In this document: piece after piece, positions 20,659-48,458 of the stretch
Position numbering within the stretch: position 1 is the stretch's first letter
How the letters are laid out: each line of letters starts with the position of its first letter
Assembly: GCF_015521605.1 (NCBI RefSeq)
Contig: NZ_WANV01000017.1
Coordinates: 6,013-70,012 of the forward strand
From: Thermococcus sp.
Lineage (GTDB): Archaea > Methanobacteriota_B > Thermococci > Thermococcales > Thermococcaceae
DNA length: 64,000 nucleotides
Reading direction: 5' to 3'
Program-made: the position numbers and the translations under genes
The notes under the pieces: model-generated
Databases searched by the model: none
What the model saw: only the letters and a program-made list of their open reading frames with translations
Told to the model about the DNA's origin: nothing

Positions 20659-20723
20659 GACCGATGAGGAGTGTCATCCCTCCTGATGCCAAGATGATGA
20701 CATTATCCCCACCTGAGGTGGTC
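20659..20723 (+). ncRNA. C/D box sRNA (2'-O-methylation guide)
   Basis: C box AUGAGGA 20664-20670, 12-nt guide, D' CUGA 20683-20686, 7-nt spacer, C' AUGAUGA 20694-20700, 12-nt guide, D CUGA 20713-20716. Terminal stem GACC/GGUC. Spacing is canonical for archaeal sRNAs. Confidence 0.7.
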
Positions 20724-26122: not shown

Positions 26123-26200
26123 GGGCCCGTGGTCTAGCCTGGTTATGACGCCGCCCTCACACGGCGGAGGTCCGGGGTTCGAACCCCCGCGGGCCCACCA
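26123..26200 (+). tRNA. tRNA-Val (CAC), CCA encoded
   Basis: Acceptor GGGCCCG/CGGGCCC, anticodon stem CCGCC/GGCGG with loop CUCACAC, T loop UUCGAAC. Confidence 0.9.
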
Positions 26201-26622: not shown

Positions 26623-27504
26623 TTGTCTTTCGTTGTGGCGGGCCGGGCGGGATTTGAACCCGCGACCTTCGGCTCGAAGAGAAGTCTCAACGAAATGTGG
26701 GACCTCCACAAAGACCAGTTCAGGGAATGGCTCTCAAGCAAAGTAAAGGGCAAACGCACAGTGAAGGACTACATGAACTCGCTCGACAGATTTTTGGAGC
26801 GCCACAAAATCAGCACGATAGGTGAGCTGGTCTCAGCCCTCCAGAAGATCGACTACAACCACCACACTGTTTCTGCCCTCAGGAACTTCATAACCTTCCT
26901 GGAACTCTATGGCATCATAGACGGCGATGACGCGGACAGGATACGAAAGTACGCTAAAATGAAAAAGGCCAACGTGGACAGGACATACATCTCAAACGAG
27001 GAAATCCAGGAAGCCTGGAGGCAGGTCAAAGCATACCGTGAGAAACGCCGCGAGCTGGCGTTCAAGCTTCTCGTCTTCTCAGGGCTCCGGCTGGCCCACG
27101 TTCACTACCTCCTCACAACCTTCGACCCTGAAAAGCTGATTCTCCAGGGCAACATAGCAAAGTACCCGCTCCACGAAGCAGGCAAGGGCTCAAAGCGCGT
27201 GTTCTATGCATACATGCCGGCAGACTTTGCCCTTGAGCTCGAAAGGATTCCCGACAGTTACGATGCCATGAGGGAGTGGGTCAGGCGCTTCAGACCACCA
27301 GCACACCGCGTTAAGGGGAAGCTCATCAGGAAGTGGCACTTCAACTTTCTCATCCGGCATGGGGTTCCTTTTGAGGTCGCCGACTTTATCCAGGGCCGCT
27401 CCGCGAAGAGCGTTGGGGAAAGACACTACGCGAACCTTGAACTCCTCGCTGATGAAGCCTACTCCCGCGTTGTTGGGGATTTGAAGAAGGTTCTGGAGGG
27501 GTGA
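26623..27504 (+). CDS. int: SSV-type tyrosine integrase, C-terminal catalytic fragment Int(C)
   Basis: The ORF reads through attL (AGRAGFEPATFGS) into a recombinase domain with candidate catalytic residues (GLRLAH, RKWHFNFLIRHG, GERHY). Its N-terminal partner is at 47658-47911. Confidence 0.8.
   Translation: MSFVVAGRAGFEPATFGSKRSLNEMWDLHKDQFREWLSSKVKGKRTVKDYMNSLDRFLERHKISTIGELVSALQKIDYNHHTVSALRNFITFLELYGIIDGDDADRIRKYAKMKKANVDRTYISNEEIQEAWRQVKAYREKRRELAFKLLVFSGLRLAHVHYLLTTFDPEKLILQGNIAKYPLHEAGKGSKRVFYAYMPADFALELERIPDSYDAMREWVRRFRPPAHRVKGKLIRKWHFNFLIRHGVPFEVADFIQGRSAKSVGERHYANLELLADEAYSRVVGDLKKVLEG
26636..26675. repeat. attL core (40 bp, duplicate of the tRNA-Arg 3' part)
   Basis: TGGCGGGCCGGGCGGGATTTGAACCCGCGACCTTCGGCTC, identical to 47872-47911. 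Flanking bases differ on both sides. Confidence 0.9.
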
Positions 27505-28058: not shown

Positions 28059-29855
28059 GTGGATGTGATCCGGAAAAAAGCACTCGGGGTAGTAGTGGTA
28101 GCCCTTTTCCTCGCGGCCCTCGCGGGCACAGCGACCGCCGCCTCGCTCGACCTGCCGAAGTGGGTCATCGTTCCAGAGGACTCAAGCTTCAGCGACGTGA
28201 CGCTGTTCTGCGGGCTCGATGACCTTGTCAGCAATGGCGATGGAACTTATAATGTGACTGGATTCAGGGACGGGGTAAGTATCATTGCACTAGTTAATGA
28301 TACAAATACAACAAATACAAACAATCCTGCGCTTGTAGCTGGAAGAATCGGGAATGCAATTCATTTCGGAGGCGAACATTACATACAGACAACAACTTTC
28401 TATAATTACACAAAGTCGTACACTGTTGCACTCTGGTTTAGAACAACTGCAACTGGTTATTTGTTCTGGCTTAGTTATAGTGCAACATCATCTGCTCCAG
28501 CGATAGCTGTCAGAATTTACTCATCGACAACATTAGAAGTCGTAAATCTTGTTCCAAACTCTGTGTGGTTGCGTTGGTATGTTAACGCAGGGAAAACAAT
28601 TACTGACGGCGAATGGCACTTTTTAGCGATACGTTACGATGTTGGCAGTAACAGTGGGCAAGTAATACTCGATGGACAAATATTAGGGACAAACACACAA
28701 ACACCAGTAGCAACGAATTGGGCGAGGCTCGTAATCGGAGCAGCATACAATGATTATACTGATACTCTATATGGCTTTTTCACTGGTGATATTGACGAAT
28801 TTAGGGCGGTACAAAGATACCTCACTCTCGACGAAATCAAGCTCCTCTACCTCGCTGGAAGAAAGAAGCTCTCCGAGCCCGCGCAGTTCGGGCAGATTTT
28901 CAGCCCTATGATTGATTTGACAAGGGACAGGGCGACGTTCTACGCTGGTCTTGAGGTCAGCACGAGCGACCCCTCGGGCTACGTGCCCGTGCCCGAGTCA
29001 GCGGTCAACATGAGCATCACCAGCGCCCCGAAGCTCACGAGCGACTACACAAACGCCCCGTTCTACTACCAGGGCCACTACTGGTACCGCGCCGACAAGA
29101 TACAATTCAATTTGCCCATACAGTTCGAGACCGTCCGCGAGAGCGGCGGCTTCTCAAAGGAAATCCTCCTCGACGAGGACAGCAAGACCTTCGTCTACGA
29201 GAAGGAGTTCAAGGTCACCAACCCCACCGCGGCGAAGCTGAACGTCGTCTACACCGTTGACCCCACCGCGCTCGGCTTCTCCGTGCTCCAGTACCCGCAG
29301 TTTGAACTTGACGGCGTCAGCATGGCGGAGTGGAGCCCGAGCAACTCCTCGACGCTCTACCTCATCCGCACCGACTCGCTTGACCCCGGCGAAATCAGCA
29401 CACACTGGATAAAGAGCACCTGGACGATTAGCAAGGAGGAGCTGGAGTTCCCTGCGAAGCTCGACGACTTCAGGAGCATCACCGATTGGACCGCAGCGCA
29501 GAGGATGGCCGAGAATACCCTCGAGGGCAAGACCGACACCTACGTCAAGGTCATCAAAATCGACAGCAACGCGGACGTTTCCAATGTGACTATTCTCGTC
29601 CCGCTCAAGGACGTCAAGGATGAGAACGACGTTATCGAGGCTACAGCCCTCACCGGCGCCAGGGACACGCTCCAGGTCGAGAAGCTCGAAGATGGAAAAG
29701 TCGTCGTGAAAGTGCCCGGCCAGGACTTTGTGAGCGGCCACGCCGAGATAAAGGTTCTCTACAACAAGAGCGGCGGCTCTTGGTTCAGCCAGCTCCTCGA
29801 CAAGATACGCTCGCTCATCGCGAAGATAAAGTCTCTGATTTTCGGGGGTGGCTGA
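28059..29855 (+). CDS. Secreted LamG/concanavalin-A-like lectin-domain protein (adhesin candidate)
   Basis: Signal peptide KKALGVVVVALFLAALAGTATA. LamG pattern GNAIHFGG..YTVALWFRT..GEWHFLAIRYD..LVIGA..FTGDIDEFRAVQRYLTLDEI. GTG start after GGAGGG. Confidence 0.75.
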   Translation: MDVIRKKALGVVVVALFLAALAGTATAASLDLPKWVIVPEDSSFSDVTLFCGLDDLVSNGDGTYNVTGFRDGVSIIALVNDTNTTNTNNPALVAGRIGNAIHFGGEHYIQTTTFYNYTKSYTVALWFRTTATGYLFWLSYSATSSAPAIAVRIYSSTTLEVVNLVPNSVWLRWYVNAGKTITDGEWHFLAIRYDVGSNSGQVILDGQILGTNTQTPVATNWARLVIGAAYNDYTDTLYGFFTGDIDEFRAVQRYLTLDEIKLLYLAGRKKLSEPAQFGQIFSPMIDLTRDRATFYAGLEVSTSDPSGYVPVPESAVNMSITSAPKLTSDYTNAPFYYQGHYWYRADKIQFNLPIQFETVRESGGFSKEILLDEDSKTFVYEKEFKVTNPTAAKLNVVYTVDPTALGFSVLQYPQFELDGVSMAEWSPSNSSTLYLIRTDSLDPGEISTHWIKSTWTISKEELEFPAKLDDFRSITDWTAAQRMAENTLEGKTDTYVKVIKIDSNADVSNVTILVPLKDVKDENDVIEATALTGARDTLQVEKLEDGKVVVKVPGQDFVSGHAEIKVLYNKSGGSWFSQLLDKIRSLIAKIKSLIFGGG

Positions 29856-29897: not shown

Positions 29898-31229
29898 ATG
29901 AAGATGGTTGGGTGGAAAAAGCCCCTCGGCCTCCTGGCCGTTTTCCTGGTTGTGTTTTCCGTCTTTGCCGTAGTGAGGGCAGCGACCATCACCAACGTGG
30001 AGTGGGAGAATGCCATCACCGACCCCGGCATCGAGCTGATTCCAGGCTATCCGGCCACCGTGAACGTCACCATACTGACTTCCAGCGGTGAGCCCTTTGC
30101 CCTCGCGAACCTCCAGGGCGCCGACACGATATCAGTGACTGGAAAGTTCGTGGATGAATATGGAAACGCTCTCGACATGAACGGCGACGGCACCGCCGAC
30201 ATCTACACCTTCTCAAATACCTCCACGCCGGGCCTTTGGACGGCGACGATCAACGTCTCGAACGTCCAGCCGGGCATGTACACTCTCAAGATCGAGGCCA
30301 TAGCGCAGAACAGCACCACCAGCACCATCATCGACAACGCGACCCTTGAGCTCCAGGTTTGGGTCGCAGGGGGTCCGTATTGGGTCGCGATTGCCAACAT
30401 TAAGGACGGTGACACGGTCGAGATTGGGAGCACAAGCTTCACCATCCGCGGTCTCTCCGACCTCGGCGCTATCCTCGACCTCGGGAACCTGAGCACGCAG
30501 ACCCTGACTGACGACGATAGGGACGGAATTTTCAGCTGGCAGCACGACGTGACCGGCGACGGCACGAATGATTGGGTCGTCTTTGTCAAGAGCGACGACA
30601 GCGAGGACGTGTACAACCTCTTCGTCTACTCTGCTGACGCGACCCTCCTCGACAACATCAACATGAGCGACACATTCTACCGCGTTAAGGGTGACAGGAT
30701 CAAGTTCCCGAACAGGGTCTTCAAAGACCTGAACAGGTACAACGCTTATGTCGTGTGGGACGAGAGCTGGCTTGCGAAGCTCGGCCTGAAGGCAGTGGAT
30801 TACTACATAATACCACTCCAGGGCCGCGAGCACTGGAGGGAAGGCATTGGCAACGTCGAGAGGACTGACATAAAGGTCATCAAGAGGACGACCTACCTCT
30901 TCGGCCTGTTCGGGAACGAGGAGGAAGTCTACAGCGGCAACATCTTTGGAAAGAACGTCAACATAGACAACATCCTGAGCATCTTCGGAAAGTTTGTTGG
31001 CAACGCGGCCTATCTAGGCCAGGGAATTTGGGAGATCAAGAGGGGCATAGGCGACATAACAATCCCGAACGACTACACTCTCAAGAGCCGCGAGGCAAGA
31101 GATCTTGCAATAGACGATGAGCTCTGGCGCGGCTTCAACCCGCTCAAGACCGACAAGAGAGGCTTCTTCAGCAAGAGCATTGATTGGGAAGACCTCCTCG
31201 GCATCATGACCGAGGACAGCGAGAGCTGA
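29898..31229 (+). CDS. Secreted protein, unknown function (Ig-like N-terminal region likely)
   Basis: 444 aa from ATG 29898. Signal peptide MKMVGWKKPLGLLAVFLVVFSVFAVVRA and many NxT/S sequons. Confidence 0.6.
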   Translation: MKMVGWKKPLGLLAVFLVVFSVFAVVRAATITNVEWENAITDPGIELIPGYPATVNVTILTSSGEPFALANLQGADTISVTGKFVDEYGNALDMNGDGTADIYTFSNTSTPGLWTATINVSNVQPGMYTLKIEAIAQNSTTSTIIDNATLELQVWVAGGPYWVAIANIKDGDTVEIGSTSFTIRGLSDLGAILDLGNLSTQTLTDDDRDGIFSWQHDVTGDGTNDWVVFVKSDDSEDVYNLFVYSADATLLDNINMSDTFYRVKGDRIKFPNRVFKDLNRYNAYVVWDESWLAKLGLKAVDYYIIPLQGREHWREGIGNVERTDIKVIKRTTYLFGLFGNEEEVYSGNIFGKNVNIDNILSIFGKFVGNAAYLGQGIWEIKRGIGDITIPNDYTLKSREARDLAIDDELWRGFNPLKTDKRGFFSKSIDWEDLLGIMTEDSES

Positions 31230-31245
31230 GGGGGCCTGATACTCT

Positions 31246-32808
31246 ATGAGGGCCCTTCCAGCGACTTTCATCATTTTCATTATGCTCTTTTCGACGCTCA
31301 GCGTTGCAGTAGCTGACAGCAGCTTCAACGAGACAGTCACTCAGCCTCAGCTCCCACACCTCACAATCTCTGACTACGTGAACAAGGCTCTCATCGCCAT
31401 CAAGGCCTGGCGCTTCGACAGCACCGGGCTAATCAGGACGAACACGGGCATCTACGTGGATGAGCAGTTTTGGGATTGGGTGACTGGCTCGATCCAGGCA
31501 AGCGCAAACCTCACCGACATGGCGCTGGACTGGCTGAACACCTTCAAGCAGAAGGTCCAGAACGACGAGGAAGTCGACTGGATCATCATCACCTGGCTGA
31601 AGCCGAACGATCGCATCAAAGAGGCCCTTGAGGCAGTTGGGGCGAAAGTCATCTACGTTGACGAGGGCATCCATGCAATCACCATCCGCGCCCGCCCGAG
31701 CCTCATCAAGAACCTCGTCTATTCCAAGGCCTTCGACTTCGGCTACCGCTTCTACATCAGAGAAGTTTGGCCAGACCTCTACGTCGCCAACAGCCCGGCA
31801 ACAGTTGAGAACGTCAACGCGGCCCTCCTCCAGGGCAACATCACTCCCGAACAGGTGGCCAACGCCAACTGGAACATCAAGCTGATAAAAGCGGATTTGG
31901 CCTGGAGCAAGAAGGGTATCACGGGCAAGGGTGTCACGATAGCGATCGTCGATACGGGCGTGGACTGCGACCACGTCATGCTCCAGGGCGCGTGCATAGC
32001 CAAAGCCAACTTCGTGAGCGACGAGCCTTCCGATGACCTCAACGGCCACGGAACCCACGTGGCCAGCATCGCCGCAGGGCGGCCAGTTAAGGTGAACGTG
32101 GACGGAAAAATTGTCTACGTGAGCGGTGTTGCGCCAGAAGCGAATGTTTTGGCCGTGAAAGTGCTCGGCAAGGACGGCGGGGGCACAATGACACAGATCA
32201 TCCAGGGGCTGGACTATGTTGTGGAATGGAAGAAGAAGCACCCTGACGAGCCGATAGTCGTGAGCATGAGCCTCGGAAGCCCGTTCGGAAGCCCAAGAGA
32301 CCCGATGGTCCAGAAGGTTGAACAGCTCATCAGGGAGGAGCACATCCCGGTCGTCATCGCGGCCGGAAACGAGTTCGTGGTCATAGACAGCCCCGGCATC
32401 GCCACCGGCGCCATCACCGTGGCCGCGGTTGACAGGGACATGAAGGTGGCCGAGTTCTCGGGCAAGGGGCCAGGCCTGAACATCTACGACATCAAGCCGG
32501 ACATAGCAGCTCCTGGCGTCAAGATAGTCGCCGCGAGGGCCGGAACGAAGAACGAGTTCATAGCCATGAGCGGAACCAGCATGGCCACACCGCACGTTTC
32601 CGGAGTTGTCGCCCTCATTCTCCAGGAGCACGGCACGCTGACGCCAGAGACTGTCAAGATGATCCTCCAGAAGACCGCTTATCCCTTGGACGGCATCAAC
32701 GCACTCCCGACCTGGAGTGGTGCGGGACTAGTGGATGCTTACGCCGCCGTGAACGCAGAGCCACCGAAAGAGAGCTTTTGGGGTTGGCTCGGGAGGCTGC
32801 TGCCATGA
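31246..32808 (+). CDS. Element-encoded secreted subtilisin-like serine protease (S8)
   Basis: 520 aa with a signal peptide. Triad motifs IAIVDTGVD, HGTHVASI and [12 protein letters not shown], plus an N-terminal propeptide-like region. Confidence 0.85.
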   Translation: MRALPATFIIFIMLFSTLSVAVADSSFNETVTQPQLPHLTISDYVNKALIAIKAWRFDSTGLIRTNTGIYVDEQFWDWVTGSIQASANLTDMALDWLNTFKQKVQNDEEVDWIIITWLKPNDRIKEALEAVGAKVIYVDEGIHAITIRARPSLIKNLVYSKAFDFGYRFYIREVWPDLYVANSPATVENVNAALLQGNITPEQVANANWNIKLIKADLAWSKKGITGKGVTIAIVDTGVDCDHVMLQGACIAKANFVSDEPSDDLNGHGTHVASIAAGRPVKVNVDGKIVYVSGVAPEANVLAVKVLGKDGGGTMTQIIQGLDYVVEWKKKHPDEPIVVSMSLGSPFGSPRDPMVQKVEQLIREEHIPVVIAAGNEFVVIDSPGIATGAITVAAVDRDMKVAEFSGKGPGLNIYDIKPDIAAPGVKIVAARAGTKNEFIAMSGTSMATPHVSGVVALILQEHGTLTPETVKMILQKTAYPLDGINALPTWSGAGLVDAYAAVNAEPPKESFWGWLGRLLP

Positions 32809-39646: not shown

Positions 39647-39911
39647 ATGGTTTCTCTACATCTCCCTGGCCCTCGGGGCCTGGCTGATCTATGAGGTCGT
39701 GGCCGACAAAGTTCATGGCCCCGGCCGATACTGGATAACCCTCAACGTCGAGGGCGATGCCGACCGCGTCGAGTACCTCATCAGGCAACTCGCAAAGGAG
39801 CAGAAAATCAAGATCAGGAGCTACAAAGTCACGACCGAAAAACCCTCCAAACGCAAGAGGAAAAAGCTTTTTGGAGGTTTGCCGAAAAAAGAAAAGGAGG
39901 GTGCCACATGA
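39639..39911 (+). CDS. Small membrane protein with Lys-rich tail (90 aa)
   Basis: N-terminal TM helix FLYISLALGAWLIYEVV and a C-terminal KRKRKKLFGGLPKKEKE. Overlaps both neighbours. Confidence 0.5.
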   Translation: MFEWFLYISLALGAWLIYEVVADKVHGPGRYWITLNVEGDADRVEYLIRQLAKEQKIKIRSYKVTTEKPSKRKRKKLFGGLPKKEKEGAT

Positions 39912-41269
39912 AGAGGCTCGCCGCCTTTCTCATCTTTCTCCTCGCCGGTGCCATAGTGCCGGCCGCGGTGATGGCTGAAGGAGCGGTCGCGACGATCCAC
40001 GTTGAGGCAGGGATGCCCGAGACCATAACAATCCCCGGAGCGATAGTGAACTGGACCGGGGAGTTCCAGTATACGGCTGGCAAAGGATGGGAAGCCTACT
40101 TCAAAGTTCACTTTACCGAGACAGGCAACCCCCACGACGTGACAGCCACAGAACGCGGCTTTGTTGACTCTGACGGAAAATACATCTGGATTCTGACAGA
40201 CGTCCAAGTAACCGACAATCCGGAGGAGAAAGAACTCACACTCTACGGAGAGTGGAACCAATTCTTGGTCAAGGAGATCAATCCGCTGACCGGAGAGGCT
40301 AAGATATACAACGCCAGAGATGATAAGATCTACACGCTCCACAAGGGTGAAGAAGTGGAAATCGGGCAATTTGATATCACTGAACGAACCACCCTCGAGC
40401 TCAAAGACCTGACATGGAGCAGTGTTAGACTCATGCTCCACCACTACACGGTAGCCAGCGGGACTGTCGAAGTGTATCCAAATCCCGGCTATCCTCCGGG
40501 GACAGAGCTCGAAGAAGGAATGACGCCTACTCTTACAACAAACTCAACACCACAGCCCTTCATAGATCCGACAAAAGTTCCGGCGGTGATGATCGTTGTC
40601 GGTGAGCACGCAGCAGGGGCTGATGTGGCAGCAGGAGCAAAAGTTGGAATAGCAGTGCAGAAATGGATAGACGAATCCGACAGCCTCATCGAGTGGCTTC
40701 CCCTGCCCTCAACCGTCGTCAAGGCATACAAAGAACTCAAGAAAAGCTTCATACGCGCCGACGCGATGCTTGATACTGAGGTAACCGACCCCAACAAGAT
40801 GGCGCCAATCGTCTACAGTGTTGGGGGGCCGGCAGCGAACGAGTATTCAGCCATGCTCAACAACAGAACCGACCTGCCAGTGCGCTTTGTCAAGGAGAAC
40901 GGCAAGTGGTACCTCGTGAGCAAATACGGCGACAAGTGGAGCGGGAGCTACGGTGTCATTGAGGTAATACCCTCTGCAAGGACTCCAGAGGAAATGAAAG
41001 AGCACCTACTCAACGGCGACTTCAAACTCTACGACGTGCTCGTTGCAGGGCTTGACAGGAAAGGTACTTATGCAGCGTGCAAGCTGCTAAACGCCAACTT
41101 CATGGACATGCTCAACGGCCAGAAGCCGGATCCGAGGCTCATGAACCTCATCACCCTCCAGGCCCAACTCAACATGCTCTTCAGCGGCTACTTCTACCTC
41201 GACCAGGCCAATGCCGTGGCGATTGTTGTGGACGAAAATGGAAAAATAGTGGAAGTTGTAGCGGGGTGA
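39908..41269 (+). CDS. Secreted protein with weak S-layer-protein-like C-terminal half (453 aa)
   Basis: Signal peptide MKRLAAFLIFLLAGAIVPAAVMA. VMIVVGEHAAGADV and YSVGGPAANEY resemble the VGGPxxN motifs I remember from euryarchaeal S-layer proteins. Confidence 0.55.
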   Translation: MKRLAAFLIFLLAGAIVPAAVMAEGAVATIHVEAGMPETITIPGAIVNWTGEFQYTAGKGWEAYFKVHFTETGNPHDVTATERGFVDSDGKYIWILTDVQVTDNPEEKELTLYGEWNQFLVKEINPLTGEAKIYNARDDKIYTLHKGEEVEIGQFDITERTTLELKDLTWSSVRLMLHHYTVASGTVEVYPNPGYPPGTELEEGMTPTLTTNSTPQPFIDPTKVPAVMIVVGEHAAGADVAAGAKVGIAVQKWIDESDSLIEWLPLPSTVVKAYKELKKSFIRADAMLDTEVTDPNKMAPIVYSVGGPAANEYSAMLNNRTDLPVRFVKENGKWYLVSKYGDKWSGSYGVIEVIPSARTPEEMKEHLLNGDFKLYDVLVAGLDRKGTYAACKLLNANFMDMLNGQKPDPRLMNLITLQAQLNMLFSGYFYLDQANAVAIVVDENGKIVEVVAG

Positions 41270-41288
41270 ATATCCCTTCCTTTTCTTT

Positions 41289-41642
41289 TTACTCATAATT
41301 CAGGCGAAGTACAAAAGCACCTAACAATATAAGTAAGTTTATGAGTGCTGAGGTCATTGGGAGGTTTCCTTGGAGCAATATCCAAATGGCAAAGAGATAC
41401 CCTCCAATCCGCGCGAGAACGTAACATGCTGGCGCAGTAAATCCCTCACCTGCCGTTGCGAGTATACTCGCTATATCGGCCAATGCAAATATACTCACAA
41501 ATAATAGTCTTATCCATCCTGGAGTGCTTGAGGGAAACAATGTTATAAGTACAGCATATATTGCTGAAACAGCAATACCCAAAACTGTTCCAACCAATAC
41601 TTCTCCTACAGTATCTCCCACAACAGAAAATGGATTGTCCAT
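41289..41642 (-). CDS. Membrane protein (117 aa, 4 TM), the only minus-strand gene called in the element
   Basis: Hydrophobic ORF in the AT-rich islet. Confidence 0.55.
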   Translation of the reverse strand: MDNPFSVVGDTVGEVLVGTVLGIAVSAIYAVLITLFPSSTPGWIRLLFVSIFALADIASILATAGEGFTAPACYVLARIGGYLFAIWILLQGNLPMTSALINLLILLGAFVLRLNYE

Positions 41643-41874
41643 TCACAAGCCCCCCTGCTGCTCTTTTTGATAATGCAATACCCTTATTACTCACACTTAT
41701 AAGAACATTTCGCCGCCGCGCGCTGGAAAAAAGCCAAGAATTGAGATATCACCCAAAAACTCGAAAATCCCCGAAAGCATGACCATGAGAAATTCACCAT
41801 CCCGGGAATTTTTCGCAATCTTTATTTATTAAATAACGAACACCATAACAATTATGACAATAGGGGCGGGCAAC

Positions 41875-41964
41875 ATGGCGGGCGAACCTAGTGCTAAAAT
41901 CATCGAGCCCCTGGCAAAGTATCCTACAAAGGTAATATACTATGAGCGGGGGATAGAGCAATGA
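41875..41964 (+). CDS. 29-aa upstream ORF duplicating the 5' end of the next gene
   Basis: Own call. MAGEPSAKIIEPLAKY.. compared with the downstream MTEQEAKIIEPLAKF.. Its TGA overlaps the downstream ATG. Confidence 0.3.
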   Translation: MAGEPSAKIIEPLAKYPTKVIYYERGIEQ

Positions 41965-42410
41965 CCGAGCAAGAAGCTAAAATCATCGAACCACTAGCCA
42001 AATTTCATGCGAGGTTGGACAAAGAGGGAAGAATAGCAGTTCCCAAGGCTATCAGAGACGCTCTTAATCTTGCGAAGAATGATTACATAGAAGTGGTTAT
42101 CAGGAAGGTTGAGATTGATCATACGAAACGGGAAATTCGGATACTTCGACAAGCTTACCTCATTACAAGGCTTGGAGCCAAGGGGTTAATATTCCTGCCC
42201 TCAGAGCTAAAAAAACAATTTGATCTAAAAGAGAAAGACATCGTCGAAGTCGTTCTTTATGGATTTCACAAATTCGATGAACTTGTAAGCGAGAAGGGTA
42301 AGCTGTTGATGACCAAGATGCAAAGTGTGGGTAGATGGTCCGAACTAACGCCAGATGAACAGATTCCTGAAAGCCTGGATATGGAACACTACACTTATGT
42401 GTTTGTTTAA
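41961..42410 (+). CDS. Tandem AbrB/SpoVT-domain DNA-binding protein (149 aa)
   Basis: Two swapped-hairpin motifs: RLDKEGRIAVPKAIRDALNLAKNDYIEVV and RLGAKGLIFLPSELKKQFDLKEKDIVEVV. Confidence 0.7.
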   Translation: MTEQEAKIIEPLAKFHARLDKEGRIAVPKAIRDALNLAKNDYIEVVIRKVEIDHTKREIRILRQAYLITRLGAKGLIFLPSELKKQFDLKEKDIVEVVLYGFHKFDELVSEKGKLLMTKMQSVGRWSELTPDEQIPESLDMEHYTYVFV

Positions 42411-42412
42411 GT

Positions 42413-42436
42413 TTAATAATTAGTACTAATTATTAA
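42413..42436. repeat. 24-bp perfect palindrome TTAATAATTAGTACTAATTATTAA
   Basis: Read directly. Starts 3 nt after the AbrB gene stop, inside a 283-bp non-coding stretch. The 60-nt line at 42421 has 15 G+C. Confidence 0.85.
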
Positions 42437-42653
42437 TTAGGAATTATAGAAGCCTTTTATTTCTTTCTTCTGTCTTTTGCAGCCATATAACGGCTCCTTT
42501 TTTGGGTACTTAATTAATATGCAGGCAAAATATTTCTAATTACTGTAAGGCTTGGTAATTTCCGGGATTTTTCCCACTCAAAAAACCAATGTAGTTCATT
42601 CTACCCCAATTTTGGCCACAAAAATCTTTTATACTAAAAGTGCTTACTATCTT

Positions 42654-42677
42654 ACGAGAAATATTCTCGTACGAGAA
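42654..42677. promoter_or_regulatory. Operator-like repeats ACGAGAA-ATA-TTCTCGT-ACGAGAA next to a TATA-like TTTTATAC
   Basis: 7-bp inverted repeat plus a third direct copy, 17 nt upstream of the RHH gene ATG. TATA-like box at about 42628-42636. Confidence 0.55.
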
Positions 42678-42693
42678 AAAATCTCGGAAGGTG

Positions 42694-42879
42694 ATGAATG
42701 TGGAAAGACGTGGACGTCCTCGCAAGTATGATGGCCCCGTGAAGAGGTTCGAGGCATGGATTCCCTACGGTGTTTACCAAGAGATGGAGAAGGAGAAACT
42801 ACGTCGAGGTATCTCCTGGCCCGAGCTTGTTCTGGACATGTGGGATGCATACAAGGCAAGAGTTGCAGTTGATGGGTGA
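42694..42879 (+). CDS. Ribbon-helix-helix (CopG-like) protein with N-terminal GRPRK AT-hook-like motif (61 aa)
   Basis: MNVERRGRPRKYDGPVKRFEAWIPYGVYQEMEKEKLRRGISWPELVLDMW has a beta-strand/helix/helix pattern. ATG 42694 within the 79-aa ORF. Confidence 0.6.
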   Translation: MNVERRGRPRKYDGPVKRFEAWIPYGVYQEMEKEKLRRGISWPELVLDMWDAYKARVAVDG

Positions 42880-43871
42880 TCTTCATGAGAATTCCCGTGA
42901 GAGGCCCTGGACGTCCCCGGAAATGGAACAGTAGGCTGGTTCAATGGAGGGCGGATATTCCCGAAGAAGATTTCGAGCTCGCAGAGGACGAACGTTTGAA
43001 GTTGGGCCTCTCACGGGCGGAATGGTTCCACTGGCTTTTAAGACACACAAAAATGGACGTAATGGAACTCATCGCAAAGGTGCAGCACCAAGAAGACTAC
43101 ATCAAGCAGCTTGAAAAGGAGAAGCAAGCCCTTCTTGAGGAGCGCGAGAAGCTCCTTGAGAGGATCGAGAAGCTTGAGCTTCAGCTTGAAGCCCTCAAGC
43201 AGGGCCGCTCTGTCAGATCCTATCAGGACGCCAGGATGCTCAAGGCCCTCGCTGAAAAGGCTCGGGAGGGCGTCAGCTGGAAGGCCCTCTGTGCTGAGGT
43301 CCTTGGCCTCAGGGACGAGAACAAGATCAAACGCCTGCTCAAGCTGGCTTTTGTCGTGAAGAAGGATCAGCACAACAGGTTCCCGGACAAGTTCTACCCG
43401 AAGGACATTGCGGAGGAGTTCCACGGGTGGGTTCTCAAGAGGCCCGGCGCAAAGGCGGACATCATTGACTACGTCCTCTACAGGGAAGACACTCTCAAGG
43501 CTGCGAAGGGTCTGGCAGTCGGCGAGGCAGTGAAGGAGAAGGTCCCTGAGGTCAAGCCGCTCAGGACTGGAAAGGCCGCGGAGCGCTGGATTGAGGTGTT
43601 CTTTGAGCTTGTGCACCGCGAGTACATGAGCCTCATCGCTCAGAAGCGCGGCAAGGACGCGAAGAAGTACCTGGAAGAGAAGGTGCCACCAAAGCTGGAG
43701 AAGGTCCTGGCGGACATTGACCCGGAGGACTGGCGGCGTGCAATTCTGGCAGTGCTGGAGGAGCATGAGGAGGATTGGGGTGATGTTTTCGTTTCTAACC
43801 TTCGGCGCGTTGTTCTTCGCGCCCTTAACGCGTACCACTCAAAACCGCTGGAGGTGAAGGCCGATGTCTGA
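42876..43871 (+). CDS. RHH/AT-hook N-terminal domain + coiled coil + unknown C-terminal domain (331 aa)
   Basis: The N-terminus GPGRPRKWNSRLVQWRADIPEEDFELAEDERLKLGLSRAEWFHWLL is paralogous to the preceding 61-aa protein. Coiled coil IKQLEKEKQALLEEREKLLERIEKLELQLEALK. Confidence 0.6.
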   Translation: MIFMRIPVRGPGRPRKWNSRLVQWRADIPEEDFELAEDERLKLGLSRAEWFHWLLRHTKMDVMELIAKVQHQEDYIKQLEKEKQALLEEREKLLERIEKLELQLEALKQGRSVRSYQDARMLKALAEKAREGVSWKALCAEVLGLRDENKIKRLLKLAFVVKKDQHNRFPDKFYPKDIAEEFHGWVLKRPGAKADIIDYVLYREDTLKAAKGLAVGEAVKEKVPEVKPLRTGKAAERWIEVFFELVHREYMSLIAQKRGKDAKKYLEEKVPPKLEKVLADIDPEDWRRAILAVLEEHEEDWGDVFVSNLRRVVLRALNAYHSKPLEVKADV

Positions 43872-47657: not shown

Positions 47658-47911
47658 ATGCCCAAAAAGGCCCACAAAAATAGGGGCTCTCACACGGCCC
47701 AAAAAGCCCGAAAGAGCAAGAAGGTTAGAGTTCACATCTACCTTGATGAAGAGGTTGTCGCGGGTTTGCGGGAAGAAGGCTTCAACCTCTCTCAACTATT
47801 CAACAAGCTTGGGAGGGAGCGCCTTATGATGATGCGCTCTCAAAGGGGTCTCTTTTTCACGACAGAAAAGCTGGCGGGCCGGGCGGGATTTGAACCCGCG
47901 ACCTTCGGCTC
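47658..47911 (+). CDS. int: SSV-type integrase N-terminal fragment Int(N)
   Basis: The ORF enters attR in the same frame as Int(C) reads attL (..TTEKLAGRAGFEPATFGS). Alternative start at ATG 47826. The continuation beyond 47911 is read-through across the tRNA, not a real protein. Confidence 0.7.
47872..47911. repeat. attR core (40 bp)
   Basis: Identical to 26636-26675. Forms tRNA-Arg from the 3' side of the anticodon stem through CCA. Confidence 0.9.
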
Positions 47912-47949
47912 CGGAGGCCGACGCCCTGTCCCGACTAGGCCACCGGCCC
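47872..47949 (-). tRNA. tRNA-Arg (CCG), CCA encoded; integration target
   Basis: Reverse complement GGGCCGGTGGCCTAGTCGGGACAGGGCGTCGGCCTCCGGAGCCGAAGGTCGCGGGTTCAAATCCCGCCCGGCCCGCCA. Anticodon stem UCGGC/GCCGA with loop CUCCGGA. Confidence 0.9.
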
Positions 47950-48092
47950 ACGCCCATAGGTATTCCCTGGGTAGATTTAAAAACCTAATCACCGCTCTTG
48001 ATGAATCAAAATGTACACCAAAGCATCGAAAAGCACAAAAACTTTTTAGCTTAGGCACCCTACATAGAACAAGGAAGAGGAGGAGTGATACC

Positions 48093-48458
48093 ATGCAGCC
48101 CCACGAATTCAAGCTCACCGAAGAAGGTATAAAGGCTGTTCTTCCGCCCCTTGAGGCCGAGATAATGGAGCACATGTGGAGGGTCAAGGTGGCGACGGCA
48201 GGACAGGTCTATGAATATATGAAAGTGAAGCACCCGGACATAAGGCGCTCCACCATAAGCATCCTCATGAACCGCCTGTGCGAGCGCGGACTCCTCAAGA
48301 GGAGCGTTGAGAAGGGAAGGGGTGGAATGAGGTACGTGTACTCCATAACAACGACCCGTGAAGAGTTCGAAGAGAGGGTCGTCCAGAGCATCCTCGATGC
48401 ACTGATGACAAACTTCAAGGAGGCGACCTACGCCTATCTCTCCAGAATTAAGAAGTGA
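48093..48458 (+). CDS. BlaI/MecI/CopY-family winged-helix repressor
   Basis: 121 aa from ATG 48093. AGQVYEYMK..STISILMNRLCERGLLKR..YVYS pattern. Confidence 0.7.
   Translation: MQPHEFKLTEEGIKAVLPPLEAEIMEHMWRVKVATAGQVYEYMKVKHPDIRRSTISILMNRLCERGLLKRSVEKGRGGMRYVYSITTTREEFEERVVQSILDALMTNFKEATYAYLSRIKK

Follow-up and report, generated by a model that had tools for sequence, protein, structure and literature searches.

Why does one gene of a Thermococcus mobile element carry, inside an otherwise GC-rich open reading frame (ORF), a long segment of much lower G+C content? The gene in question (28059 to 29855, plus strand) encodes a predicted surface protein of 598 amino acids (aa) with a LamG head and is a homologue of ORF1 of plasmid pAMT11 (Thermococcus sp. 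AMT11) and of TK0074 of the integrated element TKV1 in Thermococcus kodakarensis. It belongs to an integrated element of the pAMT11/TKV1 family that lies in a stretch of 64,000 nucleotides (nt) from Thermococcus sp. contig NZ_WANV01000017.1, hereafter referred to as the window, whose positions serve as coordinates throughout. The initial annotation had read the segment as the trace of a recent replacement of the ligand-binding head by a cassette from a lower-GC donor. The analyses described here point to another answer. The segment would be one allele of an old polymorphism in ORF1 of pAMT11/TKV1-type integrative plasmids, and its low GC would be a standing property of the heads, not the scar of a single import. 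We consider it probable that this explanation holds as a whole, i.e., that the polymorphism is old and family-wide and that the heads are exchangeable and have a low-GC composition of their own. Its core, a polymorphic, swappable head combined with low GC across the family, we hold to be highly probable.

A two-breakpoint likelihood fit inside the ORF placed the low-GC segment at 28244 to 28840, with 40.7% GC versus 58.8% in the remainder. The log-likelihood gain of the two-breakpoint model, determined on a coarser grid, was 25.2; codon-shuffled versions of the ORF gained 4.4 ± 1.4 (maximum, 10.5), none of 500 shuffles reached the observed value, and 11 other long ORFs of the window gained 2.7 to 10.2 in the same test. 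The switch is located mainly at third codon positions, whose G+C content (GC3) is 0.20 to 0.45 inside the cassette versus 0.75 to 1.00 outside (0.32 for the whole cassette and about 0.8 for the remainder of the ORF), the transition being complete within 30 to 60 nt at each edge. The G+C content of first codon positions (GC1) is likewise reduced in the head. Host genes in the window have a GC3 of 0.71 ± 0.06 (n = 38) and the other element genes one of 0.72 ± 0.08; the cassette lies more than 6 standard deviations below the host genes and also below the other element genes. Among all 600-nt segments of the window, those with at most 42% GC make up 1.3% and start only at 28194 to 28282 or at 41226 to 42404.

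The compositional observations of the initial annotation were thus largely sound. Its hand counts (21, 25, and 22 G+C in the 60-nt lines starting at 28381, 28441, and 28501, and 39 in that starting at 28921) were all exact on recount, the abrupt switch it had placed at 28235 to 28820 (41.0% GC) is borne out by the same 500 codon shuffles, and the signal peptide and last 340 aa were confirmed to be host-like as far as composition is concerned. Its equation of the low-GC stretch with the LamG domain needs amending: the two do overlap (Pfam Laminin_G_3, aa 103 to 261), but the low-GC stretch starts some 40 codons earlier, at aa 55 to 62. We delimit the head cassette, which encodes a LamG/ConA-like beta-sandwich, as aa 55 to about 257 (28221 to 28829).

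To compare the head with its flanks, DNA was assembled for 16 homologous loci (14 of them nonredundant), including the complete T. kodakarensis KOD1 genome and plasmid pAMT11; a genome scan gave 4 loci and a metagenome scan 6, and more DNA came from exact-protein look-ups. Two of these loci, L012 and L013, carry the window head (DNA identity, 0.95 and 0.94), whereas a third, L014, does not (0.38). For L012, L013, and L014, respectively, the identity to the window gene is 0.87, 0.78, and 0.87 over aa 1 to 54; 0.87, 0.87, and 0.78 over aa 246 to 330; 0.73, 0.72, and 0.84 over aa 331 to 450; 0.78, 0.75, and 0.86 over aa 451 to 520; and 0.84, 0.78, and 0.85 over aa 521 to 598. L014 is therefore the opposite of L012 and L013, with an unrelated head and a body nearer to that of the window gene. 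Cassette and flanks, compared separately, have different nearest relatives: L012 and L013 for the head, and L014 and L001 (0.84 to 0.85) for aa 331 to 450.

Synonymous divergence (dS) points the same way. Among the three carriers of the window head type (the window, L012, and L013), it is 0.077 to 0.175 in the head, 0.37 to 0.62 in the N-terminal part, and 0.62 to 0.95 in the body, with ratios of nonsynonymous to synonymous divergence (dN/dS) of 0.38 to 0.53, 0.20 to 0.40, and 0.09 to 0.19, respectively, the values for the head indicating relaxed, not positive, selection. By sliding identity, a block at least 92% identical to both L012 and L013 spans about 28209 to about 28808, and the three copies of this head type have slightly different junctions. 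On this divergence evidence, the window head can be shown to have moved between diverged backbones far more recently than the backbones split.

The same pattern extends to the family. The LamG-head protein has 31 homologues, all from Thermococcus, Pyrococcus, or uncultured Thermococci. In an alignment of 30 homologues, aa 1 to 54 and 246 to 598 are conserved, with many invariant columns, and aa 104 to 245 are barely alignable (column identity, 0.39 to 0.45 versus 0.74 to 0.95 elsewhere). Near-identical bodies carry unrelated heads: proteins P0020 and P0022 are 92% identical in the body and 37% in the head, P0008 and P0010 91% and 43%, and P0016 and P0017 89% and 36%, the head values taking in the semiconserved aa 55 to 103. 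Together with the contrast in dS between head and flanks, these pairs uphold the domain-swap mosaic structure that the initial annotation had proposed. Only P0002 and P0003 have the window head type as well (92%). When the head alone was searched exhaustively against 1.84 billion protein representatives, its own cluster was returned, followed by generic LamG domains of large multidomain proteins at 24 to 35% identity; outside its own gene family, no relative exceeded 35% identity. No relatives of the family were found in an IMG/VR scan or by tblastn against a phage collection. Two distant proteins of about 555 aa, P0032 and P0033, share the N-terminal arm, the LamG head, and the EIKLLYLAGRKKLS arm and have an unrelated C-terminal part, indicating that the head-plus-arms unit acts as a module beyond the family. 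We found no published account of the hypervariability or the low GC of the head, whether in work on pAMT11/TKV1 or in work on the lectins of Thermococcales, and no mention of TK0074 to TK0076 in the literature searched. Both the allele-for-allele head polymorphism in the pAMT11/TKV1 family and its uniformly low GC irrespective of host appear to be new.

The low GC proved to be a property of the whole allele pool. Head GC3 (0.30 to 0.51) is below body GC3 (0.51 to 0.85) in 16 of 16 loci, TK0074 and pAMT11 among them, in hosts ranging from 41 to 55% GC; this is the outcome that the initial annotation itself had named as speaking against transfer and for a functional constraint on composition. 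Head GC3 does not vary with host GC3 (0.31 to 0.71), and flank GC3 partly follows the host. In five of the six loci with a low or intermediate host GC3 (0.35 to 0.54), aa 271 to 350, directly after the head, have a GC3 of 0.69 to 0.94, the exception being L004 (0.41). There is also negligible room for an assembly chimera, in which a low-GC piece would have been joined to the gene by misassembly of a mixed sample. Several of the related loci are metagenomic, and nothing else specifically suggests this. The same head, frame, and junctions are found in three independent assemblies, the same architecture and dip occur in the complete KOD1 genome and in sequenced pAMT11, and the reading frame of the ORF is intact.

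A low-GC segment at the equivalent place in all homologues is what would be seen if the mRNA or DNA had to be AT-rich there, either for translation pacing in secretion or folding or to ease melting of the DNA locally. The dip does not begin at a set position, however. In the window gene, L012, and L013 it starts at aa 55, where this head type leaves the family consensus; in most other members it starts at about aa 104, where alignability ends, L002 and L003 being less clear. Since the boundary tracks the homology breakpoint of each haplotype, composition follows haplotype history and not gene position. In addition, GC1 is lowered too, the amino acid sequences are unconstrained, and the heads of L016 and L017 reach a GC3 of 0.49 to 0.51. 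A functional constraint, to which the initial annotation would have turned in place of transfer, is therefore not favored and seems to us very improbable.

The direction of change within the head provides a further indication. Polarized changes among the three copies of the window head type comprised 28 from GC to AT and 18 from AT to GC, at 215 GC and 317 AT sites (Fisher P = 0.004); at third positions the corresponding counts were 14 and 8. A GC3 of 0.32 under a host equilibrium of 0.71 predicts 84% AT-to-GC changes (binomial P = 6e-7). The substitutions are thus AT directed and the head shows no sign of amelioration. Polarized counts for the flanks were left out because they are unreliable at a dS of 0.6 to 0.9. 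In synonymous codon usage, the log-likelihood difference was −0.53 for the window head; genes of genuine low-GC hosts gave −0.44 ± 0.11 and those of the window host +0.40 ± 0.12, and the usage of all heads leans toward the low-GC model.

These data bear directly on the proposal of a single recent replacement by a cassette from a lower-GC donor, with the low GC as its unameliorated signature. Sharp compositional edges, a head much younger than its flanks, and a codon usage that fits low-GC Thermococcales genes are all in its favor. Against it stand the low-GC3 heads in all 16 loci, with many unrelated sequences; the location of the sole other carriers of the window head, L012 and L013, in loci of 52 to 54% GC; the lack of any relative above 35% identity elsewhere among the 1.84 billion representatives; and head substitutions that run to AT, not GC. 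A single import consequently appears improbable, and this part of the initial annotation is not supported by the comparison.

The main rival to an exchangeable polymorphism with its own composition is of a different kind. Heads could diversify mostly in elements of low-GC Thermococcales (about 40 to 43% GC) and be recombined repeatedly into GC-rich hosts before they ameliorate. Head GC3 is indeed near the host GC3 of the low-GC loci (0.31 to 0.49), and the codon usage of all heads leans in the corresponding direction; the slightly differing junctions of the three head copies are as separate transfers would give, and AT-directed substitutions are expected if the divergence took place in such a reservoir. 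On the other hand, the elements in low-GC hosts mostly have flanks that are GC3-richer than the host (0.60 to 0.94 versus 0.35 to 0.49; L002, L003, and L016), implying that the backbones flow the opposite way or are not at home there. No low-GC carrier of the window head type is known, and the scheme requires each head in each GC-rich host to be a recent arrival. We judge a reservoir rather unlikely, though less so than a single import. Codon usage cannot separate it from an AT-biased mutational equilibrium and is neutral between the two.

Under the favored reading of an old, exchangeable polymorphism, the low GC may have arisen without any donor. The heads would be too diverged to recombine with one another and so may drift to an AT-biased mutational equilibrium, while the flanks would be continually homogenized, and perhaps enriched in GC, by recombination. 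We regard this drift of the heads, as opposed to recombination-homogenized flanks, as a possible cause of the low GC, if somewhat short of a probable one. More tentative still, and in our view rather doubtful, is the extension by which the heads serve as a natural no-recombination control, so that the difference between head and flanks would stem from a GC enrichment that depends on recombination in these archaea.

Exchange itself would have a ready substrate. Near-invariant, GC-rich DNA blocks, silent sites included, abut the variable segment in 12 loci, low-GC hosts among them. The left arm is GACGTGACGCTGTTCTGCGGGCT (aa 46 to 53; 28194 to 28216, about 23 nt), and the right arm, a block of about 50 nt that is near-invariant across the family, corresponds to DEIKLLYLAGRKKLSEPA (aa 258 to 275; 28830 to 28882); third-position conservation is 75 to 100% in the former and mostly 66 to 100% in the latter, whose family consensus is GACGAAATCAAGCTCCTCTACCTCGCCGGCCGCAAGAAGCTCTCCGAGCCCGC. 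Their position and conservation suggest that the arms may act as natural homology arms for head replacement when two elements share a cell. The heads would then be swapped by homologous recombination in these conserved arms whenever two elements meet, and their diversity could be maintained by selection on what the head binds, for which a glycan or protein that varies on the surface of Thermococcales cells or vesicles is the likeliest candidate.

The right arm of pAMT11 shows a peculiarity. The deposited ORF1 (L011; GQ254849, about 740 to 800) contains a compensated local frameshift, AAG AAG CTC having become AAG AGC TC, at a site equivalent to window 28860 to 28920; it reads GRKSSPSPPASARFSARPLDLT where all relatives have GRKKLSEPANFRQIFSP.IDLT. 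The deviation could reflect either an error in sequencing or a genuine pair of indels.

Variability so extreme and restricted to one ligand-binding domain also calls to mind in-place targeted hypermutation by a diversity-generating retroelement or a local mutator, with AT enrichment as a by-product. Neither a template repeat nor a silent copy of the cassette was found in the window, the best match being 34 nt (E = 0.32), and no reverse transcriptase was found among 15 scanned window proteins (14 element ORFs), small ORFs lying outside the scan. The head copies are less diverged than their flanks (dS, 0.08 to 0.18 versus 0.37 to 0.95), and their dN/dS does not exceed 1. The low divergence among copies of one head type rules out hypermutation in place, and we accord it scarcely any probability. 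Nor were inverted repeats or silent copies of the type used in silent-cassette antigenic variation or by shufflons detected within the window.

Several considerations weigh against the interpretation as a standing polymorphism with its own composition. GC-biased gene conversion in these archaea is an assumption. In low-GC hosts, head GC3 approximately matches that of the host and is not lower, which fits a reservoir equally well, and the codon usage of the head fits low-GC Thermococcales genes. The changes in the head could predate three separate transfers, having accumulated in an unseen low-GC reservoir. Their polarization involved only three copies of the head type and 46 changes and assumed a star tree. 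Most of the loci come from metagenomic contigs, with redundancy in some cases (L001/L005, L003/L007, and L004/L008). As to function, ligand binding, surface location, and a role in transfer are putative, and the conserved body has no recognizable fold in sequence and fold searches of the PDB.

What the protein does can be approached through its parts. It begins with a predicted Sec-type signal peptide, MDVIRKKALGVVVVALFLAALAGTATAAS (28059 to 28145), recognized in the translation, which corresponds to a helix at residues 3 to 26 in the model and has a host-like GC3 of 0.60 to 0.85. The LamG match of the head (Pfam Laminin_G_3, PF13385) scores 59.3 bits versus a curated cutoff of 27.6 and covers the full profile (1 to 151). 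In the AlphaFold2 model, the head has a predicted local distance difference test score (pLDDT) of 65 to 89. Foldseek matched it to pentraxins, domain 4 of AbnA (arabinan binding), CBM40 (a sialic acid-binding module), and neurexin, with E values of 1e-9 to 1e-7 and target template modeling scores (TM-scores) of 0.55 to 0.65; the matches also included the receptor-binding domains of botulinum toxins and LamG proteins and tail fibers of bacterial and archaeal viruses. Eight N-glycosylation sequons are present in the 598 aa. The body (aa 276 to 598; 28883 to 29855) is conserved, beta-rich, and high in GC3 and ends in an amphipathic helix (aa 575 to 595) followed by GGG; modeled alone, it was again beta-rich with the C-terminal amphipathic helix, at a pLDDT of 79. 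A sequence search of the body against the PDB gave zero matches, and the fold search with this model gave none better than an E value of 1e-3 and a TM-score of 0.2.

Within this region, aa 267 to 353 (28859 to 29117) are the most conserved stretch of the family, with a near-invariant FYAGLEVSTSDP.GYVPVPESAVNMSITSA. The pLDDT of this stretch is below 35 in the full-length model and 65 to 87 when the body is modeled alone, and its GC3 is very high in nearly all loci, reaching 0.94 where host genes average 0.49.

A role in recognition is suggested by the combination of a signal peptide, a conserved body, and a lectin head that exists in many deeply diverged, exchangeable alleles. With ORF2 and the protease encoded downstream, the protein would form a recognition module, secreted or on the surface, with a putative target that varies among Thermococcales strains. 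The fold matches suggest that the head may bind a receptor or glycan, and the "adhesin" label of the initial annotation, which derives from the signal peptide and the lectin fold, is best taken in the same predictive sense.

The genetic context identifies the element. It is inserted in a tRNA-Arg(CCG) gene (47872 to 47949, minus strand), the 3′ 40 nt of which (47872 to 47911) constitute the right attachment site, attR. The left site, attL (26636 to 26675), is a 40-nt perfect direct repeat of this 3′ part of the tRNA gene (100% identity; spacing, 21236), and the element between the two copies is 21.2 kb long. The attL sequence sits within the 5′ end of an ORF (26623 to 27504, plus strand) that starts in att/tRNA-like sequence and encodes the C-terminal part of a tyrosine integrase of the SSV type, known from archaeal phages (PF16795, 174.9 bits); it aligns to aa 86 to 356 of the intact 356-aa integrase of L014. 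At the other end, a plus-strand ORF (47658 to 48458) crosses attR and the minus-strand tRNA-Arg gene, and its C-terminal part matches PF03965 (penicillinase-repressor-type winged helix). The first 85 codons of this ORF may represent the N-terminal fragment expected of an SSV-type "suicidal" integrase; the intact L014 integrase differs in its N-terminal and att module.

Downstream of the LamG-head gene lie ORF2 (29904 to 31229, plus strand), a secreted or membrane protein whose start was placed where its homologues begin (MVGWKK), and ORF3 (31246 to 32808, plus strand), a subtilisin-like serine protease (PF00082, 187 bits). ORF1 to ORF3 are the markers that define the pAMT11 family (Badel et al. 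2020, PMC7253208). ORF2 is uniform in composition, with no hypervariable segment and no compositional dip. The order ORF1-ORF2-ORF3 recurs in pAMT11, TKV1, and nine other loci, and the longer order integrase, small ORF, LamG protein, ORF2, and subtilase recurs in TKV1 and four other loci; the genes that follow the ORF1 to ORF3 module also agree in order with those of pAMT11 and TKV1 (TK0074 onward). The LamG-head protein is homologous to pAMT11 ORF1 (tblastn to GQ254849, 82 to 1713; 51.8% identity, 95% coverage, E = 2e-163) and to TK0074 (56% identity, 100% coverage, E = 1e-197) over its full length. Rfam and promoter/terminator scans around the LamG gene gave nothing relevant, the promoter model being bacterial.

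Elsewhere in the element, a second low-GC island (41100 to 42900) contains the lowest GC of the window (0.36, near 42064), an AbrB/MazE-like ORF (41961 to 42410; PF04014), and an imperfect 31-nt direct repeat (41893 to 41923 and 41976 to 42006, 83 nt apart). The DNA compared from homologous loci extends to about window position 40000, short of this island. A 453-aa ORF (39908 to 41269) that matches the S-layer-like outer domain PF05124 (E = 3.5e-8) is a candidate surface protein. Among the RNA genes of the host are the archaeal signal recognition particle RNA (2002 to 2315, 220 bits) and a C/D-box small RNA of the Pyrococcus sR55 type (20660 to 20718, 70 bits), which confirm that the host belongs to the Thermococcales. 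An intact tRNA-Val(CAC) gene (26123 to 26200), which is not the att site, precedes the left end of the element by about 430 nt.

Compared with its closest relatives, the window element resembles TKV1 in its type of integrase but is inserted in tRNA-Arg(CCG), whereas TKV1 integrates in tRNA-Val(CAC) (PMC7253208); two potential tRNA targets are therefore close together in the window. pAMT11, unlike the window element, is free and has a serine recombinase instead of an SSV-type integrase. The heads of pAMT11 and TK0074 (aa 55 to 245) are unrelated to the window head, with a DNA identity of 0.32 to 0.46, near chance.

Lectin folds in mobile elements of the same hosts are also represented by the concanavalin-like proteins of PAV1, TPV1, and new virus families. 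According to a 2026 preprint (PMC12934983), the lectin-domain proteins in viruses of Thermococcales are modular and show high variability among close relatives, and they are interpreted there as binding glycans on the host surface; neither composition nor the pAMT11 family is treated in that paper. Those viral proteins combine several lectin domains with a transmembrane helix, and their variation consists in whole domains being gained or lost, whereas the window family has a single head, exchanged allele for allele between fixed arms; virions are not known from the pAMT11 family.

Phage receptor-binding proteins and tail fibers combine a conserved anchor with a divergent distal ligand-binding domain; the two parts have discordant histories and recombine at conserved junctions. 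The window gene likewise joins an anchor to a divergent module with a discordant history, and LamG tail fibers are among the structural matches of its head. The variable domain is C-terminal in tail fibers but N-terminal and internal in the window protein, and no virion, tail, or receptor is known for the window element. Bacterial O-antigen clusters and the central flagellin domain offer a compositional parallel, as they consist of diverged low-GC alleles between conserved recombination flanks, with a composition well below that of the genome whatever the host and a cause that is debated. The window family resembles them in its diverged low-GC alleles and in the exchange through conserved flanks that we propose for it; those loci are bacterial, whereas the unit in the window is a single 0.6-kb domain in a plasmid gene of hyperthermophilic archaea. 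The targets of diversity-generating retroelements, finally, share with the window protein the hypervariability of a ligand-binding domain in a surface protein of a mobile element. In those systems a short C-terminal patch varies by means of a reverse transcriptase and a template repeat, neither of which was found for the window cassette; in the window family the whole domain varies, and there is good conservation among copies of a given head type. The locus fits the pAMT11/TKV1 family and the LamG superfamily and does not fit a single foreign island or a diversity-generating retroelement.

A general lesson is that a drop in GC within a mobile-element gene is not in itself evidence of a foreign donor, the entire allele pool being low in GC in this case. 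The pAMT11/TKV1 family is defined by ORF1. The LamG-head protein is the obvious starting point for learning how these elements, or the vesicles carrying them, find cells, and T. kodakarensis, which carries the member TK0074, is genetically tractable. If the head/flank contrast is caused by recombination, the locus would provide a compact test of what determines GC content in hyperthermophilic archaea. In that event, the high GC of GC-rich Thermococcales would be upheld by recombination-associated GC-biased repair or conversion and not by mutation bias, and a low-GC mutational equilibrium would be common to all Thermococcales.

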